This document shows positions 1 through 15,883 of a stretch of DNA of 64,000 nt, piece after piece. The notes under the pieces are model-generated. The model did no database searches and was not told the origin of the DNA. It saw nothing but the letters and a program-made list of their open reading frames with translations. The number at the start of each line of letters is the position of its first letter. Position 1 is the first letter of the stretch. Source of the DNA: a virus; IMG/VR virus record IMGVR_UViG_3300042291_000957, positions 1 through 64,000 of that record; one strand, written 5' to 3'. A program made the translations under genes and the position numbers.

Positions 1-93
1 GCCACACGAAGAATACAGTCCCTACTACGGGGCTTGACACATTGAGCTTTCTTTGCTATAATAGAGACTTACTAACACACAGGAGCGAACAAA

Positions 94-1146
94 ATGGCTA
101 CACTAGTTGAGATTACAGAAGGTGCTTACGGTGCCCGCAAGAACATGATTACTCCAGGCATCCGCTTGCAGATGATCAAGGACTTTGACGGCGAGGCAAT
201 CACCTGCTTGGCTGGCGATGAAATTGAAGGTGGTCGCAACCCCTACAAGAAGATCCGTGTTAAAGTGCCAGGCATTAGTGCCTACCGTGTAGTATCACAC
301 ATTGACGAAGCTCCTGTAGGAGACAACAGTTTGGTTCAGCTCAAGATAGCTGATACGGCTGTAGCACATATTAGCGATGAAGATCTCATCGAGAAGACTC
401 GTGCTCGCTTCCAAGTACTTACAGACATGACTAAGGCTGTTAAGGCTGGTGATGTACGTGCTATGATTGTGACAGGCCCTCCGGGTGTTGGCAAATCGTT
501 TGGCGTAGAAGAAGTGCTGACTAAGGACGACTTGTTCAATACGCTAGGCGAGCGCAAGCCACGCTATGAGATTGTGAAAGGTGCTATGAGTGCCATTGGC
601 TTGTACAGCAAGCTCTACGAGTTCTCAAGCGAGAAGAATGTTATTGTGTTTGATGACTGTGACTCAGTACTGTTAGATGACCTGAGCCTGAACATCTTGA
701 AGGCCGCTTTGGACAGTTCCAAGAAGCGTACTATCTCTTGGAACACTGACAGCCGTATCTTGCGTTCAGAAGGCATCCCAGATCGCTTCGAGTTCAAAGC
801 AGGTGCGATCTTTATTACCAACATCAAGTTTGAGAATGTACGCTCTAAGAAGTTGCAGGATCACTTGGCAGCTTTGGAAAGTCGTTGCCACTACATTGAT
901 CTGCAGATGGACACAGATCGTGAGAAGGTCTTGCGTATCAAGCAGATCGTTGCAGACGGTATGTTGGACGAGTACGAGCTGAGCGATGTGGCCAAGATCG
1001 ATGTTGTGGACTTTGTGTCTAACAACCGTGCTAAACTGCGCGAGCTGAGCCTGCGTACGGTGTTGAAGGTTGCACAATTGCGTAAGGCGTTTGCTAGCAA
1101 CTGGGAAGCAATGGCTGAAGTTACTGTTATGAAGCGAGGTGCCTAA
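94..1146 (+). CDS. AAA+/P-loop ATPase
   Basis: Walker A GPPGVGKS, Walker B VIVFDDCD, SRC arginine-finger-like motif; promoter at 34-62 and RBS AGGAG at 81-85. Confidence 0.85.
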   Translation: MATLVEITEGAYGARKNMITPGIRLQMIKDFDGEAITCLAGDEIEGGRNPYKKIRVKVPGISAYRVVSHIDEAPVGDNSLVQLKIADTAVAHISDEDLIEKTRARFQVLTDMTKAVKAGDVRAMIVTGPPGVGKSFGVEEVLTKDDLFNTLGERKPRYEIVKGAMSAIGLYSKLYEFSSEKNVIVFDDCDSVLLDDLSLNILKAALDSSKKRTISWNTDSRILRSEGIPDRFEFKAGAIFITNIKFENVRSKKLQDHLAALESRCHYIDLQMDTDREKVLRIKQIVADGMLDEYELSDVAKIDVVDFVSNNRAKLRELSLRTVLKVAQLRKAFASNWEAMAEVTVMKRGA

Positions 1147-1376
1147 TGGCAACAGACACCTTAGGGTGCCAGTGGATTGGTTCGGAGCAGACCCAGGCTC
1201 CGTTCCACTCCTGTGGTAAGAAAGTGTTCCCGGGCAAGAGCTACTGTGAAGATCACGTGTGGCTGGTCTACAAAAAGAACACTAACAAAGGCAACAAACG
1301 CAAGATCAATGAGATCGAGAAAGAGTTGGCTGAGATCAAACGTATTGAAGAAGTTGAGGAGATCATAAATGCTTAA
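1146..1376 (+). CDS. GcrA C-terminal-domain-like small protein
   Basis: CQWIG...FHSCG...GKSYCEDH..LVY resembles the GcrA C-terminal pattern C.WP.G...F.FCG...G.PYC..H...AY. Confidence 0.6.
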   Translation: MATDTLGCQWIGSEQTQAPFHSCGKKVFPGKSYCEDHVWLVYKKNTNKGNKRKINEIEKELAEIKRIEEVEEIINA

Positions 1377-1554
1377 AATTATTCTAGTCATTGCCCTAAT
1401 CATCTTCCTGTTGGCTATTGGGCCGTTCCTAGTCATTTGGAGTTGGAACGTGTTGTTTGGGACATCTTTGATGATCGCTTACAATTTGGAGACCTGGGCC
1501 GCTGTGGTTCTGTTGGGAGCCTTCCTTCGAGCTAACGTAACAGTAAAACGGTAA
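1369..1554 (+). CDS. small membrane protein
   Basis: two hydrophobic segments; overlaps upstream stop; RBS GAGGAG. Confidence 0.7.
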   Translation: MLKIILVIALIIFLLAIGPFLVIWSWNVLFGTSLMIAYNLETWAAVVLLGAFLRANVTVKR

Positions 1555-1637
1555 AACTGATCGTTGACCTTAACCGATCAAGACGCTATACTAGTTAAAC
1601 GCTGTTAGGGAACAGCCACAACAAAGGAAACTTAAAA

Positions 1638-1910
1638 ATGAAAAGATTCAATCCAGAAACAAAGACTTTCAAAGTCTTCACCGCACTGTACAATGGTCAG
1701 GCCCTGACCGCCAGTGAAGCCAAGAAGCGTTTTGGCGTAGGTAACTTGGCAGCAGAAGCCAGCCGCATCCGTCAGAGCGGTTATGCTGTTTATGCCAACA
1801 GCCGCAAAGCAGGCAACGGTGTTCAGGTCACTGAGTATGTGATGGGCAAGCCATCACGTGAGATCGTTGCTCTAGGCTACAAGGCCGCCGCAATGGGCAT
1901 CACTCTTTAA
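1638..1910 (+). CDS. putative winged-HTH DNA-binding protein
   Basis: LTASEAKKRFGVGNLAAEASRIRQSGY is HTH-like; own promoter 1564-1592. Confidence 0.6.
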   Translation: MKRFNPETKTFKVFTALYNGQALTASEAKKRFGVGNLAAEASRIRQSGYAVYANSRKAGNGVQVTEYVMGKPSREIVALGYKAAAMGITL

Positions 1911-1920
1911 TTAGGGTTTC

Positions 1921-1953
1921 AAAGACAAGCCGATTCGCTCCCGGGGCGTCTTT
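1921..1953 (+). other. hairpin with conserved CCG-ATTCGCTCC-CGG apex (copy 1)
   Basis: 15-mer 1930-1944 identical to 8831-8845; outer stem AAAGAC/GTCTTT. Confidence 0.75.
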
Positions 1954-1986
1954 GGGGTGTTGTAGAAATACAACACCCTTTCTTTT
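1954..1986 (+). terminator. Rho-independent terminator overlapping a GTGTTG-N8-CAACAC palindrome
   Basis: GGGTGTTGTA-GAAA-TACAACACCC followed by TTTCTTTT. Confidence 0.75.
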
Positions 1987-2046
1987 GGTTGACAGTTTGG
2001 ACTAAAGACAGTATAATAGATACATACAGACACAACAGGAGCCGAG

Positions 2047-2439
2047 ATGACAACATTAGAATTTAGACCCAAGTGTATCAATCATGGTTGCACTAAGCCC
2101 GTAACATATAGTCACAAAGATGAGCAAGGAAACAAACGCTGGAGAATTCATTGCGGGCATTGCCAAGGAGCCAGCTACGGACGGCACGCTCATGCTTCTG
2201 GGGTAACACCATTCAAGACTGGCTACTGCTCTAACAGTGATAGTCATTTAGGGTTTGCTTGTGCTATTAACTACAAGAAAGCTCCTTGGGCAATAGGCAT
2301 GACAGAGATAGATCACAAGAATGGTGATTGCACTGACAATCGTGTTAAGAACTTAGACGAGCTGTGCCCGATGTGCCATAAACGTAAAGGTCGACTACTC
2401 GGAGACTATAACAACATGAAACACTATCGTGTGGCGTAA
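2047..2439 (+). CDS. HNH endonuclease-domain protein
   Basis: EIDHKNGDCTDNRVKNLDELCPMCH HNH motif plus N-terminal Cys pairs. Confidence 0.8.
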   Translation: MTTLEFRPKCINHGCTKPVTYSHKDEQGNKRWRIHCGHCQGASYGRHAHASGVTPFKTGYCSNSDSHLGFACAINYKKAPWAIGMTEIDHKNGDCTDNRVKNLDELCPMCHKRKGRLLGDYNNMKHYRVA

Positions 2440-2529
2440 GAGCCACACTGCCGGCACTCCAATCCCAGGGGTTGACAGTTTGGGCAAGAGGCTATATAAT
2501 AGAGACATACAGCAACAACGGAGCGAACC

Positions 2530-3180
2530 ATGTTTACAGCAGATCAAGTTTGGGGATTAGCGGTAGCGGCAGATCGTATCAATGAGGGCTACTTCAAAGA
2601 GCCTGTGTGGACTCAACCCGACAACGATCTAACAGGTCCTATGGTTCTGGTTAAAGATGCCAACAAGTTGATGGTCAAACAATGGCTCCGCGCCAATAAC
2701 TTTACAGCAGCTTCAGAAGCTGACATCGAGAAGGGTCGTGAGATTCGTCATTACTTCAACGGCTTCTTGCTCAAAGAACTATCGGGCAAGATCAACGACT
2801 TCGAGCGACAGGCACTCCGCATCGCCCAAATAGATGAGTTCACCAACAAGAACCTCCTGGAGTTTGCTATTGTAAGCTGCTTGCCCAGCACTCAACGGCG
2901 TGATGTTGACAAGAATGTCCTGGCTGCTGAAGTTAGGAACAGCACCCAGCTGACGGGCGAAGTTGGTGACAAGATACAGGGCGAGATCGAGATCGTTAAG
3001 AGCTACTACTCACAAGAGTACAATAAATTTAGAATCACAGCTAAACTGGTTGACAGCTTCGTTGATTTCTGGTATAATACTAACATGGACACAGGAAGTA
3101 GGGTGTCTATTAAAGCAAAGATTAAAAGTGTGCGTGGCGACAATACAACACAGTTAAACTTTGTAAAGAGAATTGGTTGA
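2530..3180 (+). CDS. hypothetical protein, possible C-terminal OB-fold
   Basis: 216-aa ORF with promoter and GGAGCGAA RBS; beta-rich C-terminus ending TQLNFVK. Confidence 0.7.
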   Translation: MFTADQVWGLAVAADRINEGYFKEPVWTQPDNDLTGPMVLVKDANKLMVKQWLRANNFTAASEADIEKGREIRHYFNGFLLKELSGKINDFERQALRIAQIDEFTNKNLLEFAIVSCLPSTQRRDVDKNVLAAEVRNSTQLTGEVGDKIQGEIEIVKSYYSQEYNKFRITAKLVDSFVDFWYNTNMDTGSRVSIKAKIKSVRGDNTTQLNFVKRIG

Positions 3181-3240
3181 CACTGAGCTGAGTTGGTGTT
3201 ATACTATTAAAACTGAGAAACAACTTAAAGAGGTCTTAAA

Positions 3241-4326
3241 ATGGCAAAGAGCACAGATATTTCCGTCCGCCAAGTCGGTCCAAAAGCCGCAAAGCGTTCT
3301 ATCCGCAAGGCGATTCAAACACGCCGCCCAGTGTTCCTGTGGGGTCCCCCAGGCATTGGTAAATCCGACATTGTCAAGCAGATTGGCCAGGACGCAGGCC
3401 GTGATGTTATCGACGTTCGACTGGCTCTGTGGGAACCTACAGACATTAAAGGTATTCCTTATTACGATGCCAGCAAGGGCACAATGGTTTGGGCTCCTCC
3501 AGGTGAACTGCCTATGGATCCAGAGAGTACCGCAATCATCTTCTTGGACGAGTTGAACTCCGCTCCTCCAGCTGTTCAGGCCGCTGCCTATCAGTTGATC
3601 CTTAACCGCAAGGTTGGTACTTACCACTTGCCTAAGGGTGTTGACATTGTTGCCGCTGGTAACCGTGAAGGCGATCGTGGCGTGACATATCGTATGCCTG
3701 CTCCGCTGGCTAACCGTTTCATTCACTTGGAAGCCAAGGTAGACTTTGATGACTTCCAAGAGTGGGCTGTGATGAACAATGTGCATCCAGAGGTTGTAGG
3801 CTATGTAGGCTTTGCCAAGCAGGACCTGTACGACTTCGATCCCAAGAGCCCTTCAAAGGCCTTTGCTACTCCACGCTCGTGGGTGTTTGTAAGCGACCTG
3901 CTCTGGGAAGACGACACTGACATTGATACTCTGCACAACCTGATCGCAGGTGCCGTAGGTGATGGCTTGGCTGTGAAGTTCATGGCTCACCGCAAGATTG
4001 CAGGTCGCTTGCCTAAAGCAGAAGACATCCTTAAGGGCAAGGTCAAGGACCTGCAGATTAAGGAAGTGTCAGCGATGTATTCTTTGACTGTTAGCCTGTG
4101 CTACGAGTTGAAGGATCAAGCAGAGAAGAAGGCCAAGGACTTTGATTCTCAGGCTGATAACTTCTTCCGCTACATGATGGATAACTTCCCAACAGAGTTG
4201 GTAGTAATGGGTGCTAAGACAGGCCTGACAAACTACAACCTGCCATTGGATGCAACAAAGATGAAGAGCTTTGACGAGTTCCACAAGCGATTCGGTAAGT
4301 ATGTTTTGAGTGCAATGGAGAATTAA
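3241..4326 (+). CDS. MoxR-like AAA+ ATPase
   Basis: WGPPGIGKS, IIFLDELN, AAGN, PLANRF, TPRSW motifs. Confidence 0.9.
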   Translation: MAKSTDISVRQVGPKAAKRSIRKAIQTRRPVFLWGPPGIGKSDIVKQIGQDAGRDVIDVRLALWEPTDIKGIPYYDASKGTMVWAPPGELPMDPESTAIIFLDELNSAPPAVQAAAYQLILNRKVGTYHLPKGVDIVAAGNREGDRGVTYRMPAPLANRFIHLEAKVDFDDFQEWAVMNNVHPEVVGYVGFAKQDLYDFDPKSPSKAFATPRSWVFVSDLLWEDDTDIDTLHNLIAGAVGDGLAVKFMAHRKIAGRLPKAEDILKGKVKDLQIKEVSAMYSLTVSLCYELKDQAEKKAKDFDSQADNFFRYMMDNFPTELVVMGAKTGLTNYNLPLDATKMKSFDEFHKRFGKYVLSAMEN

Positions 4327-4473
4327 GACCTCGCCCTTGCAGGGGCGGGGAGCTTCTCAGGGCTTGCCCGCCCACCTATAGAGTGCCAGGGTGTTGCGTA
4401 AATACAACATCCTGGCCACTTGACAACTTCGTCGTTTGGTGCTATAATATATACATACTAAGGAGAGCGACAC

Positions 4474-5682
4474 ATGGACCCGATCATCGATAAACTAACT
4501 ACTGCTAGAGTAGGCCTACTGCTCAAAGCACCCTTCTTCGGCAATATGGCAACTCGTATGCAATTGATCGAAGCAGACGACTGGTGCCCGACTGCGGCTA
4601 CTAATGGTCGCAATTTCTATTACAATACCAAGTTCGTGCAGAAGCTCTCAGTCAAGAAGCTGGAGTTCCTATTCGGACACGAGATCTGCCATTGCGTGTT
4701 TGATCACTTTGGTCGTGTAGGTAGCAGAGATCGTATGCTGTCTAACATCGCACAAGACTACGCTGTCAACCAGATACTGGTAGACGAACGCATTGGTGAG
4801 AAGATTACAGAAGTTAAGATCTGCTACGATGCCAAGTACCGCGGTATGGCTTGGGAAGAGATCTACGACGAGCTCTGGGAAAAAGCAGAAAAGATCTCTT
4901 TGCCTGACCTGCTCAAGCAATTGGGCGACTTGTTGGACGAGCACATCAACGAAGATGGTTCGGGCCCAGGCAAAGAAGGTGATGGAGACAAGCAGGGCAA
5001 AGGTATGCCCACTATGACTAAAGAAGAAGCACAACAGATCCGCGATGAGATCAAAGAAGCCATGATCCAAAGTGCCGCGGCAGCAGGTGCAGGCAAGACT
5101 CCTATGGGTATCCAGCGCCTGATCAAAGATATGACTGAACCCAAGATTAGCTGGCGCGATCTTGTGCGTCAAGAGATCCAAAGCATCATCCGCAATGACT
5201 ACACATTCACTCGCCCAAGCCGTAAGGGACAGATGTCAGGTGCTATCCTGCCTGGTATGAAAGAAGCAACTACCATTGACGTAGGCATCTGCATTGATAT
5301 GTCGGGCTCCATTGGTGAAGAGGATGCAACTGTATTCCTTTCAGAAGTCAAAGGCATTATGGATCAATACGAGGACTTCAAGATCAACCTGTGGTGCTTT
5401 GATACTGCTATCTATAATCACAAAGAGATCTCGCAAGACAACAGTCACGATCTTGAAGAGTATGAGCCACAAGGTGGCGGTGGTACTGACTTTGAAGTCA
5501 ACTGGGACTTTATGAAAGATAATGGCATTGCTCCCAAGAAGTTCATTATGTTCACAGACGGCTACCCTTGCGGCAGTTGGGGCGATGAGGATTATTGCGA
5601 CACTATCTTTATTGTCAAAGGCAATACAGAAGCAGAAGCACCTTTTGGCCAGACTGTTATCTACGAGAAAGAAGCGGCATAA
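4474..5682 (+). CDS. vWA-domain metallopeptidase-like protein (DUF2201 type), MoxR partner
   Basis: HEICH (HExxH), MIDAS DMSGS, GGGGTDF, FTDG; adjacent to MoxR ATPase. Confidence 0.88.
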   Translation: MDPIIDKLTTARVGLLLKAPFFGNMATRMQLIEADDWCPTAATNGRNFYYNTKFVQKLSVKKLEFLFGHEICHCVFDHFGRVGSRDRMLSNIAQDYAVNQILVDERIGEKITEVKICYDAKYRGMAWEEIYDELWEKAEKISLPDLLKQLGDLLDEHINEDGSGPGKEGDGDKQGKGMPTMTKEEAQQIRDEIKEAMIQSAAAAGAGKTPMGIQRLIKDMTEPKISWRDLVRQEIQSIIRNDYTFTRPSRKGQMSGAILPGMKEATTIDVGICIDMSGSIGEEDATVFLSEVKGIMDQYEDFKINLWCFDTAIYNHKEISQDNSHDLEEYEPQGGGGTDFEVNWDFMKDNGIAPKKFIMFTDGYPCGSWGDEDYCDTIFIVKGNTEAEAPFGQTVIYEKEAA

Positions 5683-5837
5683 TGGAAGTGCCGGGCTGTG
5701 TGGCTTTTTAGCAACAGGCCCCGCTGCTATACGTGTACAAAGACCCTAGAACTTCTAGGGTTTCTTTTGACTTTGGTTGACGGAATCGCCAAAAGGCATT
5801 ATAATTAATGCTTACACACACTAAACAGGAGCTAGAT

Positions 5838-6191
5838 ATGCAAGCAGTCGCAACAGTTATCACAGAGCAGTTGGTACAGGACGCAACCAACGAGGCAGGC
5901 ATCCAGGCCCGCTCAGCGGCTAAGGCATTCCACGCCAAGCATGGCGATCGTGACGCTTGTGGCTTTGCCTGGGTAAACGTCTACGGTGTTCGTAGCAACT
6001 CTAAGTTGGGCAAGTGGTTGGCAGCCGCAGGCTTCCGCAAAGACTACACGGGTGCATTGTGCCTGTGGAATCCAAGCGGCTTTCCTACACAATCGATCAG
6101 CATCCTGGAAGCAGGCGCTGAGGCCTACGCAGAAGTGATCAAGACCAAGTTGGGCTTGGACAAGGTCTACGCAGGAAGCAGGTTGGATTAA
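5838..6191 (+). CDS. hypothetical protein
   Basis: promoter 5777-5805, RBS CAGGAG, ATG 5838; CGFAWV motif. Confidence 0.75.
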   Translation: MQAVATVITEQLVQDATNEAGIQARSAAKAFHAKHGDRDACGFAWVNVYGVRSNSKLGKWLAAAGFRKDYTGALCLWNPSGFPTQSISILEAGAEAYAEVIKTKLGLDKVYAGSRLD

Positions 6192-6511
6192 TGGAAGCCC
6201 TCCGGGAAACAACCGGGGGTGCCTTTCCCCCGCACATATATCTACTAGATGGAAACAATCTAGTATCGTATATAAAGAGTGGAGAATCAGAACCATTCTA
6301 TTTTAAGAATCCTATTAAAGGGTTTGATAAACGTGGTAGGAAGTTTGCAACTGTAACTCCTAATCCGTTTAAAGTCAAAGTACAAAGTAATTTAATAACA
6401 GTAAAAGGCTCCAATGACAAAGAATACACAATCGATCCAGATGCAAAAACCTGTACCTGTCCAGGGTTCACTTTCCGAGGTGCCTGCAAACACTTGGCCA
6501 GCAATAGTTAA
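6191..6511 (+). CDS. SWIM zinc-finger protein
   Basis: CTCPGFTFRGACKH = CxC-xn-CxH. Confidence 0.8.
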   Translation: MEALRETTGGAFPPHIYLLDGNNLVSYIKSGESEPFYFKNPIKGFDKRGRKFATVTPNPFKVKVQSNLITVKGSNDKEYTIDPDAKTCTCPGFTFRGACKHLASNS

Positions 6512-6529
6512 ACGACTGCTGAGTGGCAA

Positions 6530-6757
6530 ATGAAACGATTCACCTTTTGGCGTAATTCCATCATATCAGAAGTCTACGTGGTTGAGTGCGAGACTGAGGA
6601 GCAGGCCCGAACCATGCTGAACGACGGTGAAGTGGATGTATTCTCAGAGGAGTGGGTGGACTGGGCAACTAGGGACTACGAGCTAGAGCACGAAGAGATC
6701 ATAGACCCTTTGTACCGTATGGTTAAAGACTACGAATCGGTTGACAGTTTGGGCTAA
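6530..6757 (+). CDS. acidic hypothetical protein
   Basis: ORF in cassette array. Confidence 0.6.
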   Translation: MKRFTFWRNSIISEVYVVECETEEQARTMLNDGEVDVFSEEWVDWATRDYELEHEEIIDPLYRMVKDYESVDSLG

Positions 6758-6797
6758 TGGCAGTATAATAAACACATACACACAAACAGGAGCTGAA

Positions 6798-6983
6798 ATG
6801 ATCAAACTCAAAGACATCCGTGAAGGCAGCGTGGTCATCGTGCGTGGCGCATTTGGCAGTGGGCCTGAGGAGCGTGTCAAAGTAGAAGAGGTTCACGCAG
6901 ACGTAAAGAACGGCCGTCCAGGCATTGACTACGAAGGTAGCTGGGCATATCTTACCCAGGTTCAGCGTGTGGTTACCTACTGA
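6798..6983 (+). CDS. hypothetical protein
   Basis: promoter 6741-6769, RBS CAGGAG, ATG 6798. Confidence 0.7.
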   Translation: MIKLKDIREGSVVIVRGAFGSGPEERVKVEEVHADVKNGRPGIDYEGSWAYLTQVQRVVTY

Positions 6984-7043
6984 TTGGTTGACACTTTGGG
7001 CGTTTGGCAGTATAATAAACACATACACACAAAGGAGCGATAG

Positions 7044-7310
7044 ATGAAAGCATTAGAGAAGTTTTTAAAAGACAAGAATCACTGGAACTCATTCTTCAAG
7101 GGTCCCCAGTATAGCCTCAACAGTGCCAAGGACCGTCAGGCTGTGGCAGACATGATTGACTCAGCCTTGAGTCCAGAGAACTTGACCTGCGATGGCGAAC
7201 TGAGCCGTACAGAGGTCAATCGTCGATACAAAGAGTTAATGACTGCGGCCAAGCAACTCAAGAAGTTTGATCCAACAGTAACCTTTTACGAATACGAAAC
7301 GGAGATCTAA
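7044..7310 (+). CDS. hypothetical protein
   Basis: promoter 6988-7016, RBS AAGGAG; LSPENLTCDGE motif. Confidence 0.75.
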   Translation: MKALEKFLKDKNHWNSFFKGPQYSLNSAKDRQAVADMIDSALSPENLTCDGELSRTEVNRRYKELMTAAKQLKKFDPTVTFYEYETEI

Positions 7311-7311
7311 G

Positions 7312-7944
7312 ATGCCTAATTGGTGTTCAAATCATATCACAGTGCGTGGCACTGATCCTGCGGCAATCAAGCGATTAGCCGATGCATTTGACAACGGTGA
7401 GTTCTGCGGTACAGTAGTGCCTATGCCAGAAGAACTCAACATTACATCAGGCTCGTTGGGTGATCCTGTAGAACAGGCTGAACTAGAGGCCAAGAGTGCG
7501 GCCAACTTAGAGAAACATGGATTCGCTAACTGGTATGACTTCAATGTGGCCAAGTGGGGAACCAAGTGGGAGATCGGCGGCAACGGTGATGTTGCAGAGA
7601 TTGATGTGGATGGCTTGAGCTTCTCTGCACCCTTTGAAAGTGCCTGGAGCCCACCCATTGGTGTATGTGAAGCATTGGCTGAACAGGGCTTCGACGTCAC
7701 CCTTTACTACTACGAACCCGGCATGGGCTTTGTGGGCAAGTGGGAAGATGGTTTTGATGACTACTACGAATATGCAGGCGAGAACTCCAAGACTGTGAGA
7801 GCCGCTATTGGTGATGAGCTAGACGATATGTTTGGCATCAGTGAGTCAATGGCTGAATACGAAGCAGAGAATGAAGAAGAGGAAGAACTCACCGAATGGC
7901 TCAAGGATGGCATTGACAAAAAAGCTCAGTTGGTTGCATTATGA
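7312..7944 (+). CDS. DUF1281/YubB-like (ferredoxin-like fold) protein
   Basis: MPNWCSN start; WYDFNVAKWGTKWE, FESAWSPP and YYEPGMGFVG motifs. Confidence 0.75.
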   Translation: MPNWCSNHITVRGTDPAAIKRLADAFDNGEFCGTVVPMPEELNITSGSLGDPVEQAELEAKSAANLEKHGFANWYDFNVAKWGTKWEIGGNGDVAEIDVDGLSFSAPFESAWSPPIGVCEALAEQGFDVTLYYYEPGMGFVGKWEDGFDDYYEYAGENSKTVRAAIGDELDDMFGISESMAEYEAENEEEEELTEWLKDGIDKKAQLVAL

Positions 7945-8234
7945 AAGTAATCAAACTGGATCGACGTTACAGTGGCTACGGCACTTGGACACATAGGACC
8001 AATGGTGGTTATTGGCAGGGTGAAGAAGCTCGTGCCAAAGGACTAATGGACTTCTACGATATGAGATGCTATATGACGCAGATGAATGGCCCGGGTTGTT
8101 TCATACACGAAGCCTGGGCCATTAAGAAGCATGGACAGGCAGTGCCTGATTGGGCTTGGGATACGGACGGCAATGTGTTCTTTCGTGACTCAGCTTTGGT
8201 TAACTTCACTTTGGCAAAGGATAGATGGCAATGA
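7941..8234 (+). CDS. hypothetical protein
   Basis: ATGA-coupled to upstream gene. Confidence 0.6.
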   Translation: MKVIKLDRRYSGYGTWTHRTNGGYWQGEEARAKGLMDFYDMRCYMTQMNGPGCFIHEAWAIKKHGQAVPDWAWDTDGNVFFRDSALVNFTLAKDRWQ

Positions 8235-8410
8235 GTAGACTATACACGTTCGTGTTCACTGTTGAGTGTGCATCAACCGGCTCTCCAGATCTAAGTAGAG
8301 CGGAAGAAATGATACATCTGAACATGCAAGAACTGGTTTATGATGACGAGTTCATCGCGGCCCTAGATGAAAAGGAGAGCGTGACAATTCAAGTTAATTT
8401 GGTAAAATGA
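8225..8410 (+). CDS. hypothetical protein
   Basis: ORF overlapping upstream stop. Confidence 0.55.
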   Translation: MAMSRLYTFVFTVECASTGSPDLSRAEEMIHLNMQELVYDDEFIAALDEKESVTIQVNLVK

Positions 8411-8499
8411 ATGGTTGACGCCAAACCAAATTGGCGTTACAATAGTAATACGCTGCTAACACAGCTAATTTTTAACACACACAGAAAGAGATATTTAAA

Positions 8500-8829
8500 A
8501 TGGCTACAGATAAAAAATTCGCAGTCGCAGGTGCTTCAACGTTTGGTGGTGACACCAAGATCCGATTCGCTAACGATATGATGCGTACCAAGATCCTCCA
8601 GAAGAATGGTCACACTGACATTGACTTGGTTGACCTGCCCAAAGAGATGACCAAGGCTGAAATCGTTCAGCACTTGAAGAGCATCAAGTTCGGTCAAGGC
8701 AATGCCGCTATCGAAGCTGCCATTGCCTACGCAGAGAAAAAGAATCCGTCAAGTACTAAGACGGTCAAGGCCAAGACTGCTACGGTCACGGCCACAGCGA
8801 CTTCTGAATCAGAAGACGCACCGTTCTAA
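8500..8829 (+). CDS. hypothetical protein with Lys/Thr/Ala-rich tail
   Basis: own promoter 8415-8443; followed by hairpin and terminator. Confidence 0.75.
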   Translation: MATDKKFAVAGASTFGGDTKIRFANDMMRTKILQKNGHTDIDLVDLPKEMTKAEIVQHLKSIKFGQGNAAIEAAIAYAEKKNPSSTKTVKAKTATVTATATSESEDAPF

Positions 8830-8852
8830 ACCGATTCGCTCCCGGCTAAGAA
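8824..8852 (+). other. hairpin with conserved CCG-ATTCGCTCC-CGG apex (copy 2)
   Basis: 8831-8845 identical to 1930-1944; outer pairing TTCT/AGAA. Confidence 0.7.
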
Positions 8853-8859
8853 CCTTGAT

Positions 8860-8892
8860 AGAGACCCTACTAACACTAGGGTCTCTTTTTTT
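8860..8892 (+). terminator. Rho-independent terminator containing CCCT-N9-AGGG
   Basis: AGAGACCCTA...TAGGGTCTCT followed by a T run. Confidence 0.8.
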
Positions 8893-8952
8893 GGTTGACA
8901 TTTTGGACATTGTGCGTTATAATAACAGCTTACACACACAAAAGGACACACA

Positions 8953-9204
8953 ATGTTTACAAATTGCATAGCATACGCAAAGCTAGTTTACAACAAAAAA
9001 CTAAAAGCATACAAAGTACAATTTGCTTTTAACGTACACAAAAAGTTAGTAGGCACTGACTACAAATATATATTTCCTGTGCAAAGCAAATGCAACTATG
9101 TTAGTGGGGACTTACTTGCAGACAACTTGCAAAACGAGGTGCAACGCACTGTGGCATCTGCGCAACAAAGTTTGCGTACTACAAACATAGTATTTGTTGA
9201 CTAA
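8953..9204 (+). CDS. hypothetical protein (TC/CC-free island gene 1)
   Basis: promoter 8895-8923, RBS AAGGA. Confidence 0.75.
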   Translation: MFTNCIAYAKLVYNKKLKAYKVQFAFNVHKKLVGTDYKYIFPVQSKCNYVSGDLLADNLQNEVQRTVASAQQSLRTTNIVFVD

Positions 9205-9282
9205 ACTGTAGGGTTATACATAGCGCATTTGACATTTTGGACAAAGTGCGCTATAATAACAACTTAGCAACAAAGGAACACA

Positions 9283-9426
9283 ATGCAAAATACTAAAAGC
9301 AAATTAGACAGTTTAATGTTACAGTTACAAGCAGTGCTAGAACAAGCAGGACTAGACGAACACGAGCGCATACAAAATGCTTTTAATGCACTTGCAATAG
9401 AACTAGACGACACAATTATAGCATAA
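9283..9426 (+). CDS. 47-aa helical peptide (island gene 2; not in ORF track)
   Basis: promoter 9229-9257, RBS AAGGA; MQNTKSKLDSLMLQLQAVLEQAGLDEHERIQNAFNALAIELDDTIIA. Confidence 0.7.
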   Translation: MQNTKSKLDSLMLQLQAVLEQAGLDEHERIQNAFNALAIELDDTIIA

Positions 9427-9513
9427 CACTACAGCGCATAGGGTTATTGCGCACACACTTGACATTTTGGACAGTGTGTGCTATAATTAACACTTAGCAA
9501 CAAAGGAGTGTGT

Positions 9514-9735
9514 ATGCAAGTAGAAGTAGTGGACATTGAGGCGGATGGTTTTTACAAAGACGCTAATGTTAGCGGCAACTGCGTAAAGGTTACACTGCGC
9601 AAAGGCACAGAGGTTGCAAGCTGTAGGCAGATACTTATTTGGGATGAGGAGTACGCAGAGGACTGCTTTGAGGACTGGAAGGACTGCGCACTTGCAGGCG
9701 AAGAGGGATACACTTACACAGAAGGAGCGATATGA
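9514..9735 (+). CDS. acidic small protein (island gene 3)
   Basis: promoter 9459-9487, RBS AAGGAG; 17 D/E vs 6 K/R. Confidence 0.75.
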   Translation: MQVEVVDIEADGFYKDANVSGNCVKVTLRKGTEVASCRQILIWDEEYAEDCFEDWKDCALAGEEGYTYTEGAI

Positions 9736-9914
9736 AGACAGTTTTTGTAGTGCAAGCACAGGGCTTTGGAGATGACGAGGACGCTTTTGAGAACATTGCG
9801 GCGTTTAGTACACTGGCTCTGGCAGACGCACACATTGCGGAACTGCAAGCACAGGACGCAGAGGAAGACAACGAGTTTGTATACAATGTGGACGCAATAA
9901 CCCTGCAGGCCTAA
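9732..9914 (+). CDS. very acidic small protein (island gene 4)
   Basis: RBS AAGGAG, ATGA overlap; 13 D/E vs 1 K. Confidence 0.75.
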   Translation: MKTVFVVQAQGFGDDEDAFENIAAFSTLALADAHIAELQAQDAEEDNEFVYNVDAITLQA

Positions 9915-9986
9915 GGGCCTTTATATTTTGGTTGACAGATTGGCTAAAGTGCGCTATAATTAACACTTAGCAACAAAGGACGTACA

Positions 9987-10325
9987 ATGTACAAAGTTAA
10001 CGCAACACTAAACACAAACGGCAACGGCTATTGGAGCAGGACTGTAGCGGCTGTAGAGATTACACGACTGCAACTTGCGTACACTAACGACGAGTTGGAC
10101 TTTGGCGAACTGCGTGTTTATTTTAACACTGCAACTTGGGATGTAAACAAGCAGGGGCTTATATACACAGACAAGCAGTTTATGCGAGAGCTTAAAGAAC
10201 TGTTAACTAGCAAGGGCTTTGACGCTAGCGATGTAAGCTACAGCGAGCAGGGAATGCAAGGGGACAATTACGTTAGCTGTGACGTTGGCGAGCGTTTTAT
10301 TAATACGTTTATGCAACAGGCATAA
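9987..10325 (+). CDS. hypothetical protein (island gene 5)
   Basis: promoter 9932-9960, RBS AAGGA; GLIYTDKQF and YSEQGMQGDNYVSCD motifs. Confidence 0.8.
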   Translation: MYKVNATLNTNGNGYWSRTVAAVEITRLQLAYTNDELDFGELRVYFNTATWDVNKQGLIYTDKQFMRELKELLTSKGFDASDVSYSEQGMQGDNYVSCDVGERFINTFMQQA

Positions 10326-10418
10326 CAATAGGGGTGTAGGCCCCGCTGCTTAACGCCGGTTGACAGCTAGCCAAAACCCTGCTATAATACATTTACACTA
10401 ACACACTTTGGAGCCAAG

Positions 10419-10709
10419 ATGAACATCACCCAAATCAACACAGCGATCCTGCAAGGTGGCTGGACCAATGATCAACTGTCAAGTATGATCGATGCGGTCA
10501 AGTTCGCCCGAGCACGTCTCACAGAACAGACCAAACGAAACCTGCGTATCGGTGACAATGTCAACTTCAACAGCACCAAACTGGGCCAGAACGTCACCGG
10601 CGTTGTGATCAAGATTGCTATCAAGTTTGTGACTGTTAAGACAGTGTCAGGCCTGTGGCGAGTGCCGGCCAATATGCTTACAGTGATCGAAGACCGAGAA
10701 TATGCGTAA
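10419..10709 (+). CDS. hypothetical protein, SH3/KOW-like C-terminus
   Basis: promoter 10360-10388; LRIGDNVNF...TGVVIKI...WRVPANML. Confidence 0.75.
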   Translation: MNITQINTAILQGGWTNDQLSSMIDAVKFARARLTEQTKRNLRIGDNVNFNSTKLGQNVTGVVIKIAIKFVTVKTVSGLWRVPANMLTVIEDREYA

Positions 10710-10717
10710 ATAAACAT

Positions 10718-10960
10718 ATGAGCAGATTAGAATACTTTAACAGGCCCTTAGTGGCTTTTGATCCTTCCAAGAAAGAACATCGCGGTTTTTATGCAGAGTT
10801 CCTAAAGAAGGGCGGTTGGGGTCAATGTCCAGTAAGGTTCATTGTGCCCGAAGATTGTGGAGGAGACCTGATCTCAATGATTAAGAACAGTCTTATACAA
10901 TACTACATTGAACGAGAGTTTAATATCAAGGCCAGGGTAGGACGCCATTATGGAATTTGA
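10718..10960 (+). CDS. hypothetical protein
   Basis: TAAATA 10707-10712, then N5, then ATG. Confidence 0.65.
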   Translation: MSRLEYFNRPLVAFDPSKKEHRGFYAEFLKKGGWGQCPVRFIVPEDCGGDLISMIKNSLIQYYIEREFNIKARVGRHYGI

Positions 10961-11339
10961 TCTGTTGGCCTTCTTGATCGGCTGTGTGATTGGCGGCATC
11001 GTAGGTTGGCGAGTGTGTGATCGCTTTCATACCTCGCTGACCACAGACCTACTCAAGGCTGTGGGAGTTGGTGAGAGTCAGCTGAAAAAAGCCATAGAGA
11101 ATCTACAGGCCGAACTGCCGCAGGGCACTGAACCAGCACTACCTGGTGTAGAAGTTCGGGTTGAGTCTGTTGACAATCAACTGTATGTGTATCGTTTGGA
11201 CACTATGGAGTTCCTTTGCCAGGGTGCCACTAGGGATGACATCATCAACTGTTTGGCCACAAGGTTCCACAAGGATTTCAAGATTATAGTGAGTGAAGAG
11301 CACGGTGCGCAATATCTAAAACCCAACCCTACTGCCTAA
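10950..11339 (+). CDS. membrane-anchored hypothetical protein
   Basis: N-terminal hydrophobic helix. Confidence 0.7.
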   Translation: MEFDLLAFLIGCVIGGIVGWRVCDRFHTSLTTDLLKAVGVGESQLKKAIENLQAELPQGTEPALPGVEVRVESVDNQLYVYRLDTMEFLCQGATRDDIINCLATRFHKDFKIIVSEEHGAQYLKPNPTA

Positions 11340-11385
11340 AGGGGCTTTGATTGACAGTGTGTCAGAATGGTGCTATAATAAACAC

Positions 11386-11622
11386 ATGACATACAAAAAC
11401 ATAGACAACATATTGCAGTGGACAGGTGCCGTGGCCATTGTGCTGGGACACGCCTTCAACGCCATGGGACCAGTGATGTATCCTTGGAACATCATTGTGT
11501 TTGCCATAGGAACTGTGATGTTTTTGCTGTGGGCTCTGCGAGTAGGCAATCGGCCACAGCTGATGGTCAACGTGGTTTCGTTGGCCATAGGTATTTTGGG
11601 TCTTGTCAAGGCTATCAGTTGA
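11386..11622 (+). CDS. small polytopic membrane protein
   Basis: three hydrophobic segments; ATG follows TATAAT (11374-11379) after 6 nt, no RBS. Confidence 0.7.
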   Translation: MTYKNIDNILQWTGAVAIVLGHAFNAMGPVMYPWNIIVFAIGTVMFLLWALRVGNRPQLMVNVVSLAIGILGLVKAIS

Positions 11623-11656
11623 TATTTGTAAACCAAACCAGCACCAAAGGCGTTAT

Positions 11657-11878
11657 ATGATTACACTAGAAGGTTTAAGTCAGCAACAGGTACAGATCGC
11701 TGAAATGTTGTGGAAATGCAACAGTCTTGAAGATGTTGATAGGTTGGTTAGGAATATGCCGCCTACCTATCGTCAAGATGCTGTGGTTGTGAAAGAGCTG
11801 TTGATAGCCGCTGGTTTGGATGACTACCAAGAAACTGATCTAGCCGAAAGGGCTTTGGTTGACATCTTTGGGCGGTAA
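11657..11878 (+). CDS. hypothetical protein
   Basis: RBS AAGG, ATG 11657. Confidence 0.65.
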   Translation: MITLEGLSQQQVQIAEMLWKCNSLEDVDRLVRNMPPTYRQDAVVVKELLIAAGLDDYQETDLAERALVDIFGR

Positions 11879-11910
11879 TGTTACACTGTAAACACAGTAA
11901 GGAGAACGCA

Positions 11911-12264
11911 ATGAAGAAGTTTGTATTAGCAATCATGATCACGGTCAGTTCTATCGGTTCAGCACAGGCCTGGGGCGATCGCGAACAAGGCGCCCTGGCA
12001 GGCCTAATCGTAGGTGCCATCGCACACAGAGCCTTTAGCCAACCTCAGCAGACGGGCTATCCACCTGTTCAGCAAGGCTTCCCCCAGCAGATGCCTACTC
12101 AGCAGTATCCTGTCTACTCCCCACAGCCACAGATCATTGTACAGGCTCCGGACATAATCTATCAGCCACAGCCTATGCAACGGCAGTGCCATACCTTTCC
12201 ACAGTATGATGTCTACGGCCGCTTTCACGGCAACCGCACTGTGTGCCGTATGGTTCCTTACTGA
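11911..12264 (+). CDS. secreted Gln/Pro-rich protein with glycine-zipper-like segment
   Basis: signal peptide MKKFVLAIM...AQA, GALAGLIVGAI, QP-rich linker. Confidence 0.75.
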   Translation: MKKFVLAIMITVSSIGSAQAWGDREQGALAGLIVGAIAHRAFSQPQQTGYPPVQQGFPQQMPTQQYPVYSPQPQIIVQAPDIIYQPQPMQRQCHTFPQYDVYGRFHGNRTVCRMVPY

Positions 12265-12321
12265 TTGACTAGAATCACTTTTGGCGTTATAATTAACACT
12301 TAGACACACTAGGAGCGCGAT

Positions 12322-12435
12322 ATGTTAAAGCTGATTGGATTCTGCACAGTGATATGGGCCTTGTTCTACTTTGGCATTGCTCAGTTGGCAGCCATCTGGG
12401 GCATGGTGGCCTTGAGTTCTGTGGCTAGTCTGTGA
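12322..12435 (+). CDS. 37-aa membrane peptide (not in ORF track)
   Basis: promoter 12265-12293, RBS AGGAG, hydrophobic. Confidence 0.6.
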   Translation: MLKLIGFCTVIWALFYFGIAQLAAIWGMVALSSVASL

Positions 12436-12836
12436 TGCAGTATCACATAGAAGCTGGCGCTAAGACTCGCCAGTACATAGAAGCAGTCTTGCCCTCCATG
12501 CTCACACAGTTGGGACTGAACAGTAGCCGCAGACTGTTGGTCGTAAAGGTTGATCAAGATCTAGAAGAGATGGGCACCACAGTGCCGCTCACAGGTATAG
12601 ACACATTCCTGGTTGTGCTCAAGCCTACTCGCAACTGGGTGAACCTAGGAGTCACTTTGGCACACGAGTTGACTCACGTGGCGCAGTTTGCCAAAGGTCT
12701 ACTCAAACCCACAGCCAAGGGCAGGTTGTGGAAGGGCAAGCTCTACAAGAACAATCATCCTTATCTTGATCAACCCTGGGAAATACAGGCCTTTGCCAAG
12801 CAGGAAATCATATTCCGTAGGGCAATAGAGTTGTAA
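12435..12836 (+). CDS. zincin-like metallopeptidase
   Basis: LAHELTHVAQ (HExxH) and Y.DQPWEIQA. Confidence 0.8.
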   Translation: MQYHIEAGAKTRQYIEAVLPSMLTQLGLNSSRRLLVVKVDQDLEEMGTTVPLTGIDTFLVVLKPTRNWVNLGVTLAHELTHVAQFAKGLLKPTAKGRLWKGKLYKNNHPYLDQPWEIQAFAKQEIIFRRAIEL

Positions 12837-12917
12837 AAATACAACACCATTTTGGTTGACTGATTGGGCTAATGGCCGTATAATTAACACATACACACAA
12901 ACAAACAGGAACACACA

Positions 12918-13229
12918 ATGGCTAAACTGTTAATCACAACCCAGACATACGAGAACTACGGTGCCCACGATTGGGACGGTGTTGGCGAGTGCCCACAGTA
13001 CTGGAAAGCCAAGGGTGGTTCGGACTACGTGGTCAAGAACATCAACGTCAACAAGGTCACAGAGACCGTGATGGGTGTGCGTGGTCAGATCGAGTGCGAC
13101 AACTACGCTTTCCGCGAAACAATCATTGACTGGACTATCGTGGCTGACGATGCGCTCACAGAGTTTGAGCAGAGCCAGTTGGCTTACGAGGGCAAGATCC
13201 GTTATGGTTCTAAGGAGTTGGCATGGTAA
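12918..13229 (+). CDS. hypothetical protein
   Basis: promoter 12856-12884; ENYGAHDWDG...QYWKAKGG motif. Confidence 0.8.
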   Translation: MAKLLITTQTYENYGAHDWDGVGECPQYWKAKGGSDYVVKNINVNKVTETVMGVRGQIECDNYAFRETIIDWTIVADDALTEFEQSQLAYEGKIRYGSKELAW

Positions 13230-13360
13230 TTGAACAGGCTATTGTAAACCTAATCATAGTGTTTATCCCTGTAATCATTATGGGTATTGCTATCCTAGTG
13301 GTTGACGGATTGGACTAATGATCGTATAATAGATACATACAGACACAAAAGGAACACACG

Positions 13361-13444
13361 ATGACAGATACACAAATTATTGTAACAGTTCTAGTAGTAG
13401 CAGTTGTTTTTGCAGTTAAGGTATGGATTCTTACAAAGATCTAA
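13361..13444 (+). CDS. 27-aa single-TM peptide (not in ORF track)
   Basis: promoter 13302-13330, RBS AAGGA; MTDTQIIVTVLVVAVVFAVKVWILTKI. Confidence 0.6.
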   Translation: MTDTQIIVTVLVVAVVFAVKVWILTKI

Positions 13445-13514
13445 TACACTGACAGGTTAAAGGGTTATTATTTGTTTGGTTGACTGATTGGCAAATTGAA
13501 CATATAATAGATAC

Positions 13515-13838
13515 AAGAAGAAACAAAAAGCAAGGCGATCCTCAAATGTAAGAACCCAGCAGAAATGCAAGCAGGGTTGTAACTAAAGGATACGAAGCGA
13601 GTTTAGAGACTCGGTCTAAGCAGAACAGTTAGAAAAGAGTTAGAGGTTACCTACACCGTTAGGGACTGTAAAGAGAGAAGCGAAGGGGCACCTACGCAAT
13701 CTTACAGTCCAAGAAGGCAAGGCGAAAGCTGAGGTTGACGGATACGGTAGGAAGTAATGACCGGCACGGCCTGTGAGAGATGCGCTTACGGGTAGAGACA
13801 GAGAGTTGACAATGGTTCCTTTAATTCTTTTCTAACTG
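13515..13838 (+). ncRNA. putative large structured non-coding RNA
   Basis: own promoter 13480-13508, no ORF in the track; 21-bp closing helix 13626-13646/13818-13838, nested stems, three GNRA tetraloops. Confidence 0.75.
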
Positions 13839-13897
13839 GTTGACACCTAGCCCAAAAGAACATATAATAGATACATACAGACACAAAGGAGCACACA

Positions 13898-14056
13898 ATG
13901 ACTAATCAACTTACCGTAGCACAACTGATCCAACTCTTGCAAGCCATTCCTAACCAGAACGCTCGTGTAGATATGGCCATGAACCAAGAGTACCAAGATG
14001 CCGTTGAGGCTTCAGACATTAACGACTACGGCGATCTCGTTGTAATCGGCCAATAA
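13898..14056 (+). CDS. 52-aa hypothetical protein (not in ORF track)
   Basis: promoter 13840-13868, RBS AAGGAG; LTVAQLIQLLQAIP. Confidence 0.7.
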   Translation: MTNQLTVAQLIQLLQAIPNQNARVDMAMNQEYQDAVEASDINDYGDLVVIGQ

Positions 14057-14124
14057 CCCAGCGGTTGACTGGGTTATCGTTTGACAGTATAATAGACACA
14101 TACAAACACACTAGGGAACACAAA

Positions 14125-14508
14125 ATGGCCAAAGTAAATTATGACGCATTCCGCTCATTCGACATTAACGAATGCTGTGACCACTTTGACAGTGAGAAGC
14201 AGGCAAACTGGAAGAAGATTGGCAAGTTCATCGTAGCAGATGGACAAGACTACGCCCACATTATGGAGTCAGAATTCGACTTTGAAGACACAGGTGCAGG
14301 CGAGTACGAGGCCTTTGCCGCAGGCGTCAAGTATGCGCTCACAAAGATGAACATTGCATTTGAGGCAGCAGGTCTGGACTTGGAAGTTAAAGAAGCAGAT
14401 TTGGTAGAAAGCATGGGATACATGTTGGTACTTGCTGACGATGAGCCTGAGGACTTTGTGAAACGTGTTATGAAGAAGCCTGTGCTACACGTGGAAAGCT
14501 GGGTCTAA
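14125..14508 (+). CDS. acidic hypothetical protein
   Basis: promoter 14065-14093, RBS AGGGA, ATG 14125. Confidence 0.75.
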   Translation: MAKVNYDAFRSFDINECCDHFDSEKQANWKKIGKFIVADGQDYAHIMESEFDFEDTGAGEYEAFAAGVKYALTKMNIAFEAAGLDLEVKEADLVESMGYMLVLADDEPEDFVKRVMKKPVLHVESWV

Positions 14509-14745
14509 ATGGGTTGGGTAGTATACGATGAGCGCACAGGGCATATGGAGAAGTACTACAAGAAGGCTGCCACTGCCCGGCGCATAGTGACCCAGCACAA
14601 TACAGAACGCCAGTACGATGGATGGACCTATCAGCCAAGTAGGATGTGGGCCTGTTGCTCATACAGAGACTATGAAGGCATCCTACTGGGCCTCAAAGGT
14701 GAAGCACTCAAGATGTGGCAGTTTTGCAACACTCAACTTGGTTGA
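14509..14745 (+). CDS. hypothetical protein
   Basis: abuts upstream stop. Confidence 0.6.
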   Translation: MGWVVYDERTGHMEKYYKKAATARRIVTQHNTERQYDGWTYQPSRMWACCSYRDYEGILLGLKGEALKMWQFCNTQLG

Positions 14746-14800
14746 CTGATTGGCTATCCTTTGCTATAATAGACACATAGCAAGCAAAAAGGTAGCCAAA

Positions 14801-15280
14801 ATGATTAGACTGATTAGCACTGTAATTTTAGCGTTCACAGCATTCACAGCCCAGGCAGCTCAAGAACACATGGAGTTCAAGACAGCACAAGATTGCCAGG
14901 CTGTGTTTACAGGCTTCCACACACAGACCAAACAGCTGGGCTTGACACGCTATGATCACCAAGGTCAAGCCTACTTTGTCAAAGACGGTTATGTGGGCTA
15001 CTGGTCAGCTGGCAATGGCTGTGATCAAGCTGCCAAGTTGACTATGGAACCCGTGGCTGAATTCAAAGCACGATTTGCTGCCAACAACAAGGCACAGGCT
15101 GACGAAGCATTTTGCTCCAGCATGACCTGCAAGGTATTGGTAGGTACAGCGGTAGTGGTTGTACTGGCAGCGGCTCTTAAGGGTGGTGCCAATGTTGGCT
15201 GTGTTCTTCCTAGCGATCGTGCTAGTGATGGTAGCCGTTGCGGTAACCGTGCTAGTTCTGTGCGTCCAGGCGGTAAGTGA
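14801..15280 (+). CDS. secreted/membrane protein with Cys-rich C-terminus
   Basis: signal peptide ...AQA; TM segment; C..PSDRASDGSRCGNRAS. Confidence 0.7.
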   Translation: MIRLISTVILAFTAFTAQAAQEHMEFKTAQDCQAVFTGFHTQTKQLGLTRYDHQGQAYFVKDGYVGYWSAGNGCDQAAKLTMEPVAEFKARFAANNKAQADEAFCSSMTCKVLVGTAVVVVLAAALKGGANVGCVLPSDRASDGSRCGNRASSVRPGGK

Positions 15281-15339
15281 TTGGTTGACAAGTTATCCAA
15301 AAGACAGTATAATAAACACATACAAACAAAGGAGCACAT

Positions 15340-15758: not shown

Positions 15759-15883
15759 AGGTGAGGGGTAGGTTGGTGGTCGGTGACAGGTGGTGAGGGG
15801 TATAGGTTATAGTGTATACTATACTACTACTATTGTACTAGTGGTAGCAAATCACCACCTCAAAAGCAAAAGTACTCCACCCT

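Follow-up and report, generated by a model that had tools for sequence, protein, structure and literature searches.

Twin 3′-untranslated hairpins of an uncultured giant phage carry a loop complementary to a lineage-specific ribosome-site tag: a putative RNA-based control of translation

The locus described here raises the question of what is gained when a phage places one short sequence, twice and unaltered, behind the stop codons of two genes. The window (the whole stretch of DNA that was analysed, 64,000 nucleotides [nt]) is the first 64 kb of the 90-kb virus record IMGVR_UViG_3300042291_000957, which is estimated to hold ∼25% of the genome of an uncultured freshwater giant phage; near-complete relatives of this phage are 353-357 kb long. 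The first ∼16 kb of the window contain an array of short plus-strand genes, nearly all of which have a C/A-rich leader and are served by a separate consensus sigma-70 promoter (TTGACA-17-TATAAT). Within this array, the 15-mer CCGATTCGCTCCCGG occurs at 1930-1944 and at 8831-8845, in the 3′ untranslated regions (3′ UTRs) of two genes referred to below as gene A and gene B. Each copy is predicted to fold into a hairpin, and the hairpin loop is complementary to a tag, GGAGCGA or its longer form GGAGCGAA, found at the ribosome sites of many genes of this phage and its relatives. With a probability of roughly 0.6, the two hairpins serve to present the loop of an anti-ribosome-site RNA, encoded by the phage, which would bind tagged messages and, most likely, repress them.

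A preliminary description of this DNA had reported the identical 15-mer at these two places, with each copy set on a different outer stem, after a stop codon and before a terminator. Both copies were confirmed, and they are the only two; no further copy with up to two mismatches was found in the window (0 expected from shuffles) or in the whole 90-kb record. The arrangement was likewise borne out by predicted folds and by the positions of the terminators, which are as follows:

1920-1954, plus strand: hairpin A (predicted fold); outer stem 1920-1926/1948-1954, inner stem 1930-1932/1942-1944, loop 1933-1941, AUUCGCUCC
1954-1986, plus strand: intrinsic terminator of the gene A unit, terminator-like hairpin and U-run at 1954-1979
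8823-8853, plus strand: hairpin B (predicted fold); outer stem 8823-8827/8849-8853, inner stem 8831-8833/8843-8845, loop 8834-8842, AUUCGCUCC
8860-8893, plus strand: intrinsic terminator of the gene B unit, terminator-like hairpin and U-run at 8860-8886

Both hairpins are predicted to consist of an outer stem, an internal loop, a CCG/CGG stem of 3 base pairs (bp), and an unpaired 9-nt loop (AUUCGCUCC), and the loop stays unpaired in the minimum-energy folds. The outer stems of the two hairpins differ in sequence. Copy A of the 15-mer begins 19 nt past the TAA of gene A (1638-1910), and copy B begins 1 nt past the TAA of gene B (8500-8829); the placement between stop codon and intrinsic terminator is kept in relatives. 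The outer stem of hairpin B is made up in part of the last codons of gene B and includes the first base of its stop codon, and across the loci with gene B homologues the internal loop contains the stop codon or adjoins it. Given that the stop codon is within the hairpin, a terminating ribosome must melt the structure, and the availability of the loop may in this way be coupled to translation. AUUCGCUCC contains CUCC and there are two hairpins per genome, so that an anti-Shine-Dalgarno motif is displayed in several loops. No Rfam family, C4 included, matched window positions 1-16000 at E-values up to 1.

The hairpin is a conserved RNA structure with compensatory stems and a near-invariant loop core. 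The set used for comparison comprised 31 loci with gene B homologues and 80 loci with gene A homologues. Across the related phage contigs, which number more than 100, covariation of the stems contrasts with a loop core, UUCGCUCC, that is almost constant. The inner stem behind gene B was found as CCG/CGG, CUG/CAG, UCA/UGA, or UCG/CGA, all of them compensatory variants; 9 of the 10 pairs of hairpin B change on both sides in 18 homologues, a result equalled by none of 500 shuffles. For hairpin A, compensatory changes were observed in 6 of 9 pairs (40 relatives). Rare variants of the loop core carry U for the last C or, at the other end, C for U; the first of these should still be tolerated for pairing, because a G-U pair would form. 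Tandem hairpin pairs were present in two relatives, one of them with a CCUAGG/CCUAGG stem, and a 98%-complete relative of 353 kb contains exactly two hairpins. Some look-alikes were set aside. Extra exact 13-mer copies in near-complete relatives do not form hairpins; each is a tagged ribosome site with its ATG, read on the opposite strand. Further TCGCTC[CT] matches in related loci are ordinary coding sequence, and a partial direct repeat of the 15-mer (10 nt; 8561-8570, codons R-F-A), located within gene B, was attributed to chance, its nucleotides not being kept in homologues.

An invariant loop on variable stems is typical of hairpins that are recognised by proteins, and this hairpin always lies just upstream of an intrinsic terminator; moreover, the CGCUC of the loop may resemble boxA. 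The hairpin might then be a protein-binding RNA signal for antitermination (of the nut/boxB kind), processing, or stability, with its complementarity to ribosome sites incidental. We regard this as unlikely. Antitermination would hardly be needed where nearly every early gene has its own promoter, and such a signal leaves unexplained why the loop is the complement of the top-ranking ribosome-site word, to which we now turn.

In the window, the ribosome sites with the best complementarity to the loop are the following:

82-89, plus strand: tagged site GGAGCGAA of gene 94-1146, an NrdC.10-like AAA ATPase; predicted 8-bp loop match, -13.1 kcal/mol
2520-2527, plus strand: tagged site GGAGCGAA of gene 2530-3180; predicted -13.2 kcal/mol; tag kept in most orthologues
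4462-4470, plus strand: bulged variant GGAGAGCGA of gene 4474-5682, DUF2201 (VWA-like); predicted ∼-10 kcal/mol; recurrent in relatives
7034-7040, plus strand: tagged site GGAGCGA of gene 7044-7310; predicted -12.4 kcal/mol
9724-9730, plus strand: tagged site GGAGCGA of gene 9732-9914; predicted -12.4 kcal/mol
12312-12317, plus strand: partly tagged site GGAGCG; predicted ∼-10 kcal/mol

All ribosome-site positions that had been named in the preliminary description for GGAGCGAA, GGAGCGA, GGAGCG, and GGAGC proved to be correct. The GGAGC sites (2038, 5828, 6789, 10410, 13888, and 15331) offer 5 nt of complementarity, with predicted duplexes of -8 to -9.5 kcal/mol. A preference for GGAGC over GGAGG had also been noted, and it was found again: at the early sites, the base after GGAG is C in 11 cases, A in 4, T in 2, and G in 0. 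On the plus strand of the 90-kb record, GGAGCGA occurs four times only, and every occurrence is a ribosome site. The four strongest sites (-12.4 to -13.2 kcal/mol) were matched by only 1-2 of 300 shuffled loops. As had been described, the genes at 1638 and 8500 share a leader stem-loop and have no GGAGC; their ribosome sites reached only -2.6 and -2.8 kcal/mol, respectively, against the loop and are predicted not to pair. The further proposal, that the hairpins shut off a whole early regulon, was upheld in one part: loop and tag behave as a co-evolving pair, as detailed below. The words "whole early regulon" were too broad, since strong complementarity (7-8 nt) is present at 4 of ∼35 sites (two more have a 6-nt or a bulged match) and since 7 of the 17 tagged sites in the 353-kb, 98%-complete relative are found elsewhere than in the early array. 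Many leaders in the window read AAAGGA(A/C)ACAC, with zero match to the loop. The tag looks partly eroded in the window genome.

In the lineage to which the window belongs, GGAGCGA was present in 153 of 867 distinct sites, and GAGGGCA in 0 of 867. Among 512 distinct GGAG sites of the relatives, 194 carry GGAGCGA, 125 carry GGAGCGAA, and 37 carry the bulged form GGAGAGCG. When all 8-mers in 1020 distinct translation start regions were ranked without preselection, AGGAGCGA and GGAGCGAA took ranks 1 and 2. The tag was seen in 61 of 201 crude gene families, which argues that it is not one inherited site counted repeatedly, and it is found mainly on the first gene behind a promoter. GGAGCGAA is followed by C or A, whereas pairing with the first A of the loop would require U; the complementarity thus ends where the invariant loop core ends.

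A motif shared by leaders and hairpins might also be read as duplex DNA. As such, the leader and hairpin motifs (GGAGCGAA/TTCGCTCC) are the same site inverted, and gene A encodes a winged-helix protein that could be the one to bind it. This explanation is very improbable. The distance of the tag is fixed to the ATG, with a standard deviation of ∼1 nt, not to the promoter (4.8 nt when measured to the -10 box), and tags are also present at internal and late genes. The tag is strictly oriented with respect to genes; the 353-kb relative has 26 copies of GGAGCGA, including 17 sense-oriented ribosome sites and 2 hairpins. The compensatory stem changes, in turn, point to a folded single strand. Because fixed spacing to the ATG, orientation, and stem covariation all argue against an operator in duplex DNA, the tag is, as judged from sequence comparison, an element that acts at the RNA level.

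The tagged genes outside the array of the 353-kb relative include two that encode small membrane or secreted proteins and two that encode tail-fibre-like proteins. The small-protein genes lie behind TAAATA. At their ribosome sites, CCGGGAGCGAATCG and CCGGGAGCGAACCG (G001, 40294-40304 on the plus strand and 49815-49825 on the minus strand; in L120), complementarity to the hairpin continues beyond the loop into the stem, reaching 14 nt in the case of CCGGGAGCGAATCG, and these two genes may be special high-affinity targets.

Whether the loop tracks the ribosome site across relatives was a test set beforehand, and it was found to do so, given that a sister lineage has switched both, to UGCCCUC in the loop and GAGGGCA in the tag. 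Eight gene A loci are without the hairpin, and tagged GGAG sites there number 0 of 25; they fall into two groups, a complete 357-kb genome and a group of seven loci. The complete 357-kb genome, of the sister lineage, has an analogous early array with a different leader and the ribosome site (A)GAGGGCAA. Directly 3′ of its NrdC.10-like ATPase gene are four hairpins, the last of which is the terminator, with the loops UAAGCCCUC, AUGCCCUC, UGCCCU(C), and UGCCCUC; the folding z-score of this four-hairpin element is -9. The same 3′ UTR was recovered from 41 non-redundant sister-lineage relatives, with 2-5 hairpins each, and 106 of the 117 GCCCU motifs in these 41 elements fall in predicted hairpin loops. 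In the start regions of the sister lineage, GAGGGCA was present in 108 of 320 and GGAGCGA in 0 of 320. The seven loci form a third lineage, in which the tag was present in 0 of 117 start regions and no hairpin was found behind gene A. Several early promoters of this lineage run directly into an ATG, within 5-7 nt (L060, L062, L079, and L085), which suggests that its early messages are leaderless.

Taken together, these comparisons support the view that loop and ribosome-site tag are a co-evolving complementary pair, changed together and absent together. Since both partners were switched in the sister lineage, it is very probable that tag and loop pair and thereby control protein synthesis. A protein-recognised hairpin would account neither for the joint change in the sister lineage nor for the joint absence in the third one. 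Neither this explanation nor a DNA site explains the covariation of tag and loop. No third tag-loop pair was found in the short loci of a more distant group with TAGGCAAA-type leaders.

Two features of the sister lineage may be added. In its hairpin arrays, the stop codon of the carrier gene lies in the first loop (L136, 19755-19775). In addition, its early leaders carry AGGGCAAAC twice, once ∼8 nt after the -10 box and once at the ribosome site (G005, 11.6-23.4 kb; L136, 11600-20000; L137, 1-3400), giving two possible pairing sites for a four-loop RNA.

The two genes that carry the hairpins in the window have a common build, which comprises a slightly weaker promoter, a 5′ stem-loop, a weak untagged ribosome site, the hairpin, and the terminator. 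Ahead of the hairpins, their units are composed of the following elements:

1564-1592, plus strand: gene A promoter, sigma-70-type, TTGACC-17-TATACT, 10 of 12 matches
1601-1616, plus strand: 5′ stem-loop of the gene A transcript, GCUGUU-AGGG-AACAGC, with compensatory changes in gene A homologues
1638-1910, plus strand: gene A, 90-amino-acid winged-helix protein (Pfam HTH_39), weak untagged ribosome site AAGGAAA
8415-8443, plus strand: gene B promoter, sigma-70-type, TTGACG-17-TACAAT, 10 of 12 matches
8452-8465, plus strand: 5′ stem-loop of the gene B transcript, GCUG-CUAACA-CAGC, with covarying equivalents in gene B homologues
8500-8829, plus strand: gene B, 109-amino-acid protein with no family or fold match, weak untagged ribosome site AGAGA

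The 5′ stem-loop of the gene A transcript is probably a stabiliser. No strong internal promoter was seen in the units that carry the hairpins. Among sequenced phages, the gene A protein gave a weak match to Pelagibacter phage HTVC008M only. For the gene B protein, a protein search of sequenced phages gave no match, no Pfam, PHROG, or NCBIfam family was found, and a structure model (predicted local distance difference test score, 75) had no significant match among solved structures. With neither family nor fold match, a role of the gene B product as an RNA chaperone cannot be claimed.

The proposed mechanism would proceed as follows. Host sigma-70 polymerase would make single-gene messages of A and B, which their 5′ stem-loop and structured 3′ end probably render long-lived. 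In each 3′ UTR, the two-tier hairpin would display UUCGCUCC in its open 9-nt loop, and this loop would form an 8-bp loop-to-strand duplex with GGAGCGAA, which serves in this model as a private extension of the Shine-Dalgarno sequence on many promoter-proximal phage genes. The duplex would cover the Shine-Dalgarno sequence, and as hairpin RNA accumulates it would compete with the 30S subunit and lower the translation of tagged messages. Genes A and B, being untagged, would escape. The parts of this model that we infer are that the RNA acts in trans, that it is processed to a small RNA, that the effect is repressive, and when it takes place. A shut-off that accumulates slowly would be in keeping with the weaker promoters of the carrier messages and with their protected ends. 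Repression appears to be the most probable outcome, given leaders of seemingly unstructured sequence and a duplex that lies over the Shine-Dalgarno sequence.

Complementarity and covariation of this kind would also be expected if the loop paired with tagged sites in order to protect or activate them, for instance by shielding GGAG from a RegB-type endoribonuclease or from host RNases. T4-type phages attack the GGAG of early messages through RegB, and the product of the gene at 94-1146, an AAA ATPase, has homologues in T4 (nrdC.10) and in the Pseudomonas giant phage PA5oct, which places the present phage in the wider T4-related group. Nevertheless, protection or activation is an unlikely role, if the least unlikely of the alternatives considered here. 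The tagged leaders are C/A-rich, look unstructured, and need no opening, and a duplex over the Shine-Dalgarno sequence would in itself obstruct the 30S subunit. Moreover, searches for the RegB and RegA Pfam families gave no match in the record of the window or in two near-complete relatives, although this is a weak point, as the search was silent in control genomes too.

A further alternative is that the loops act in cis only, masking the ribosome site of the next gene or of their own gene and so serving for insulation or self-regulation. The orthologue of gene 2530, which follows hairpin A, is tagged in most relatives, and the sister lineage has a tag on the very ATPase gene behind which its array lies. 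There is also a precedent in the icaR message of S. aureus, in which pairing of the 3′ UTR with the Shine-Dalgarno region of that message blocks initiation and provides RNase III with a substrate (PMC3868564). The icaR 3′ UTR, however, acts on its own message, whereas the phage carrier genes A and B are without the target motif and many other genes have it. The gene after hairpin B is mostly untagged, in the window (AAAGGACACAC) as well as in relatives, so that a cis model fits hairpin A but not hairpin B. Strong terminators stand directly 3′ of both hairpins, and in the near-complete relative the tagged sites are spread over tens of kb and on both strands. We therefore consider action purely in cis to be improbable, to about the same degree as a protein-binding signal.

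Several points weigh against an anti-ribosome-site RNA acting in trans, which remains the reading we prefer. The tag is eroded in the window, where most early sites have GGAGC only or are without GGAG. The tag-loop switch amounts to two independent pairs and one absence, in lineages that differ in many other ways, and the carrier gene of the sister-lineage array has a tag of its own, which makes intramolecular pairing possible there. The 8-bp loop contact is short, and a helper protein may be needed for it to outcompete the 30S subunit. Finally, the region is partly present in 14 freshwater RNA runs, and the assembled metatranscriptome contigs, from which neither ends, strand, nor level can be read, say nothing on a discrete RNA.

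Some known systems resemble the proposed one. In T4, early messages are shut off after transcription by the proteins RegB and RegA. The logic would be alike here, in that a T4-related phage acts on the GGAG sites of early messages, with RNA as the proposed effector. The c4 antisense RNA of phages P1 and P7 uses its loops to pair with a ribosome-site region and represses the icd-ant operon in an immunity circuit of temperate phages; c4 loop and target differ together between P1 and P7. Unlike c4, which has one target operon, the tag is on dozens of unrelated genes, and the likeness is one of mechanism only, with no match to Rfam C4. RsaE of S. aureus and related small RNAs of Gram-positive bacteria use conserved unpaired pyrimidine-rich loops to pair with several Shine-Dalgarno regions and block the initiation complex (PMC2790875), and the phage hairpins are like them in having a C-rich anti-Shine-Dalgarno motif in loops. 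RsaE-type RNAs, however, are free-standing cellular genes whose UCCC faces a generic Shine-Dalgarno sequence, whereas the phage loop (8 nt) matches a private GGAG plus CGAA on the phage's own genes, the phage hairpin is in the 3′ UTR of a message, loop and tag co-evolve, and there is no sequence homology. The cuckoo/CcsR RNAs of Alphaproteobacteria consist of 2 to 4 neighbouring hairpins whose stems vary but whose loops all share one anti-Shine-Dalgarno-like motif (PMC4615179). This architecture is shared by the sister-lineage arrays and by the tandem pairs of two relatives. The cuckoo/CcsR RNAs are nonetheless cellular and have the motif CCUCCUCCC, the window hairpins are single and on two separate messages, and no homology was detected.

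No published description of a hairpin-tag system was found; the papers that were retrieved on phage and 3′-UTR small RNAs treat other systems, and those retrieved for the motif were unrelated. The arrangement differs from the known systems in its seed, which matches a private extension of the phage's own ribosome sites, in its lineage-matched pairs, and in its carriers, the 3′ UTRs of early messages in virulent T4-related giant phages. If the proposed pairing holds, one short RNA motif would set the translation of dozens of unrelated genes in a virulent phage, and host messages would be spared because the tag exceeds the generic ribosome-binding sequence. At least two natural and orthogonal tag-loop pairs constitute evolutionary evidence for pairing, and they would be ready-made orthogonal parts for translation control. 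The pairing also gives conserved 3′-UTR structures of uncultured phages a concrete, testable function, and it offers a way in which early expression might be timed by T4-related giant phages in which RegB and RegA homologues are not seen. More tentatively, and at somewhat less than even odds, a large and uncultured group of T4-related giant phages may use a private translation code, in which a lineage-specific tag on a set of phage genes is read by the loops of a phage RNA as an orthogonal, RNA-only switch for an entire class of genes, perhaps in place of RegB and RegA.

The surroundings of the hairpins offered some additional observations. A nucleotide search with positions 1-9000 gave no match among sequenced phages. 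The ATPase gene (94-1146) opens the early array, and its counterpart in the sister lineage is the gene that carries the hairpin array; the PA5oct homologue is a gene of unknown function. Between the terminator of gene A and the next unit lies an HNH endonuclease gene (2047-2439, within 1989-2448) with its own consensus promoter. This gene is missing from most relatives, and one contig from an RNA library joins 1981 to 2489 without it; the region 1989-2448 looks like a mobile homing-endonuclease cassette. Just 5′ of the -35 element of the gene 2530 promoter is a conserved box, C(C/T)GGCACUCC (2449-2458), which holds a CUCC-like core and was found at the same place upstream of gene 2530 orthologues in many gene A loci (for example, L036 and L041).

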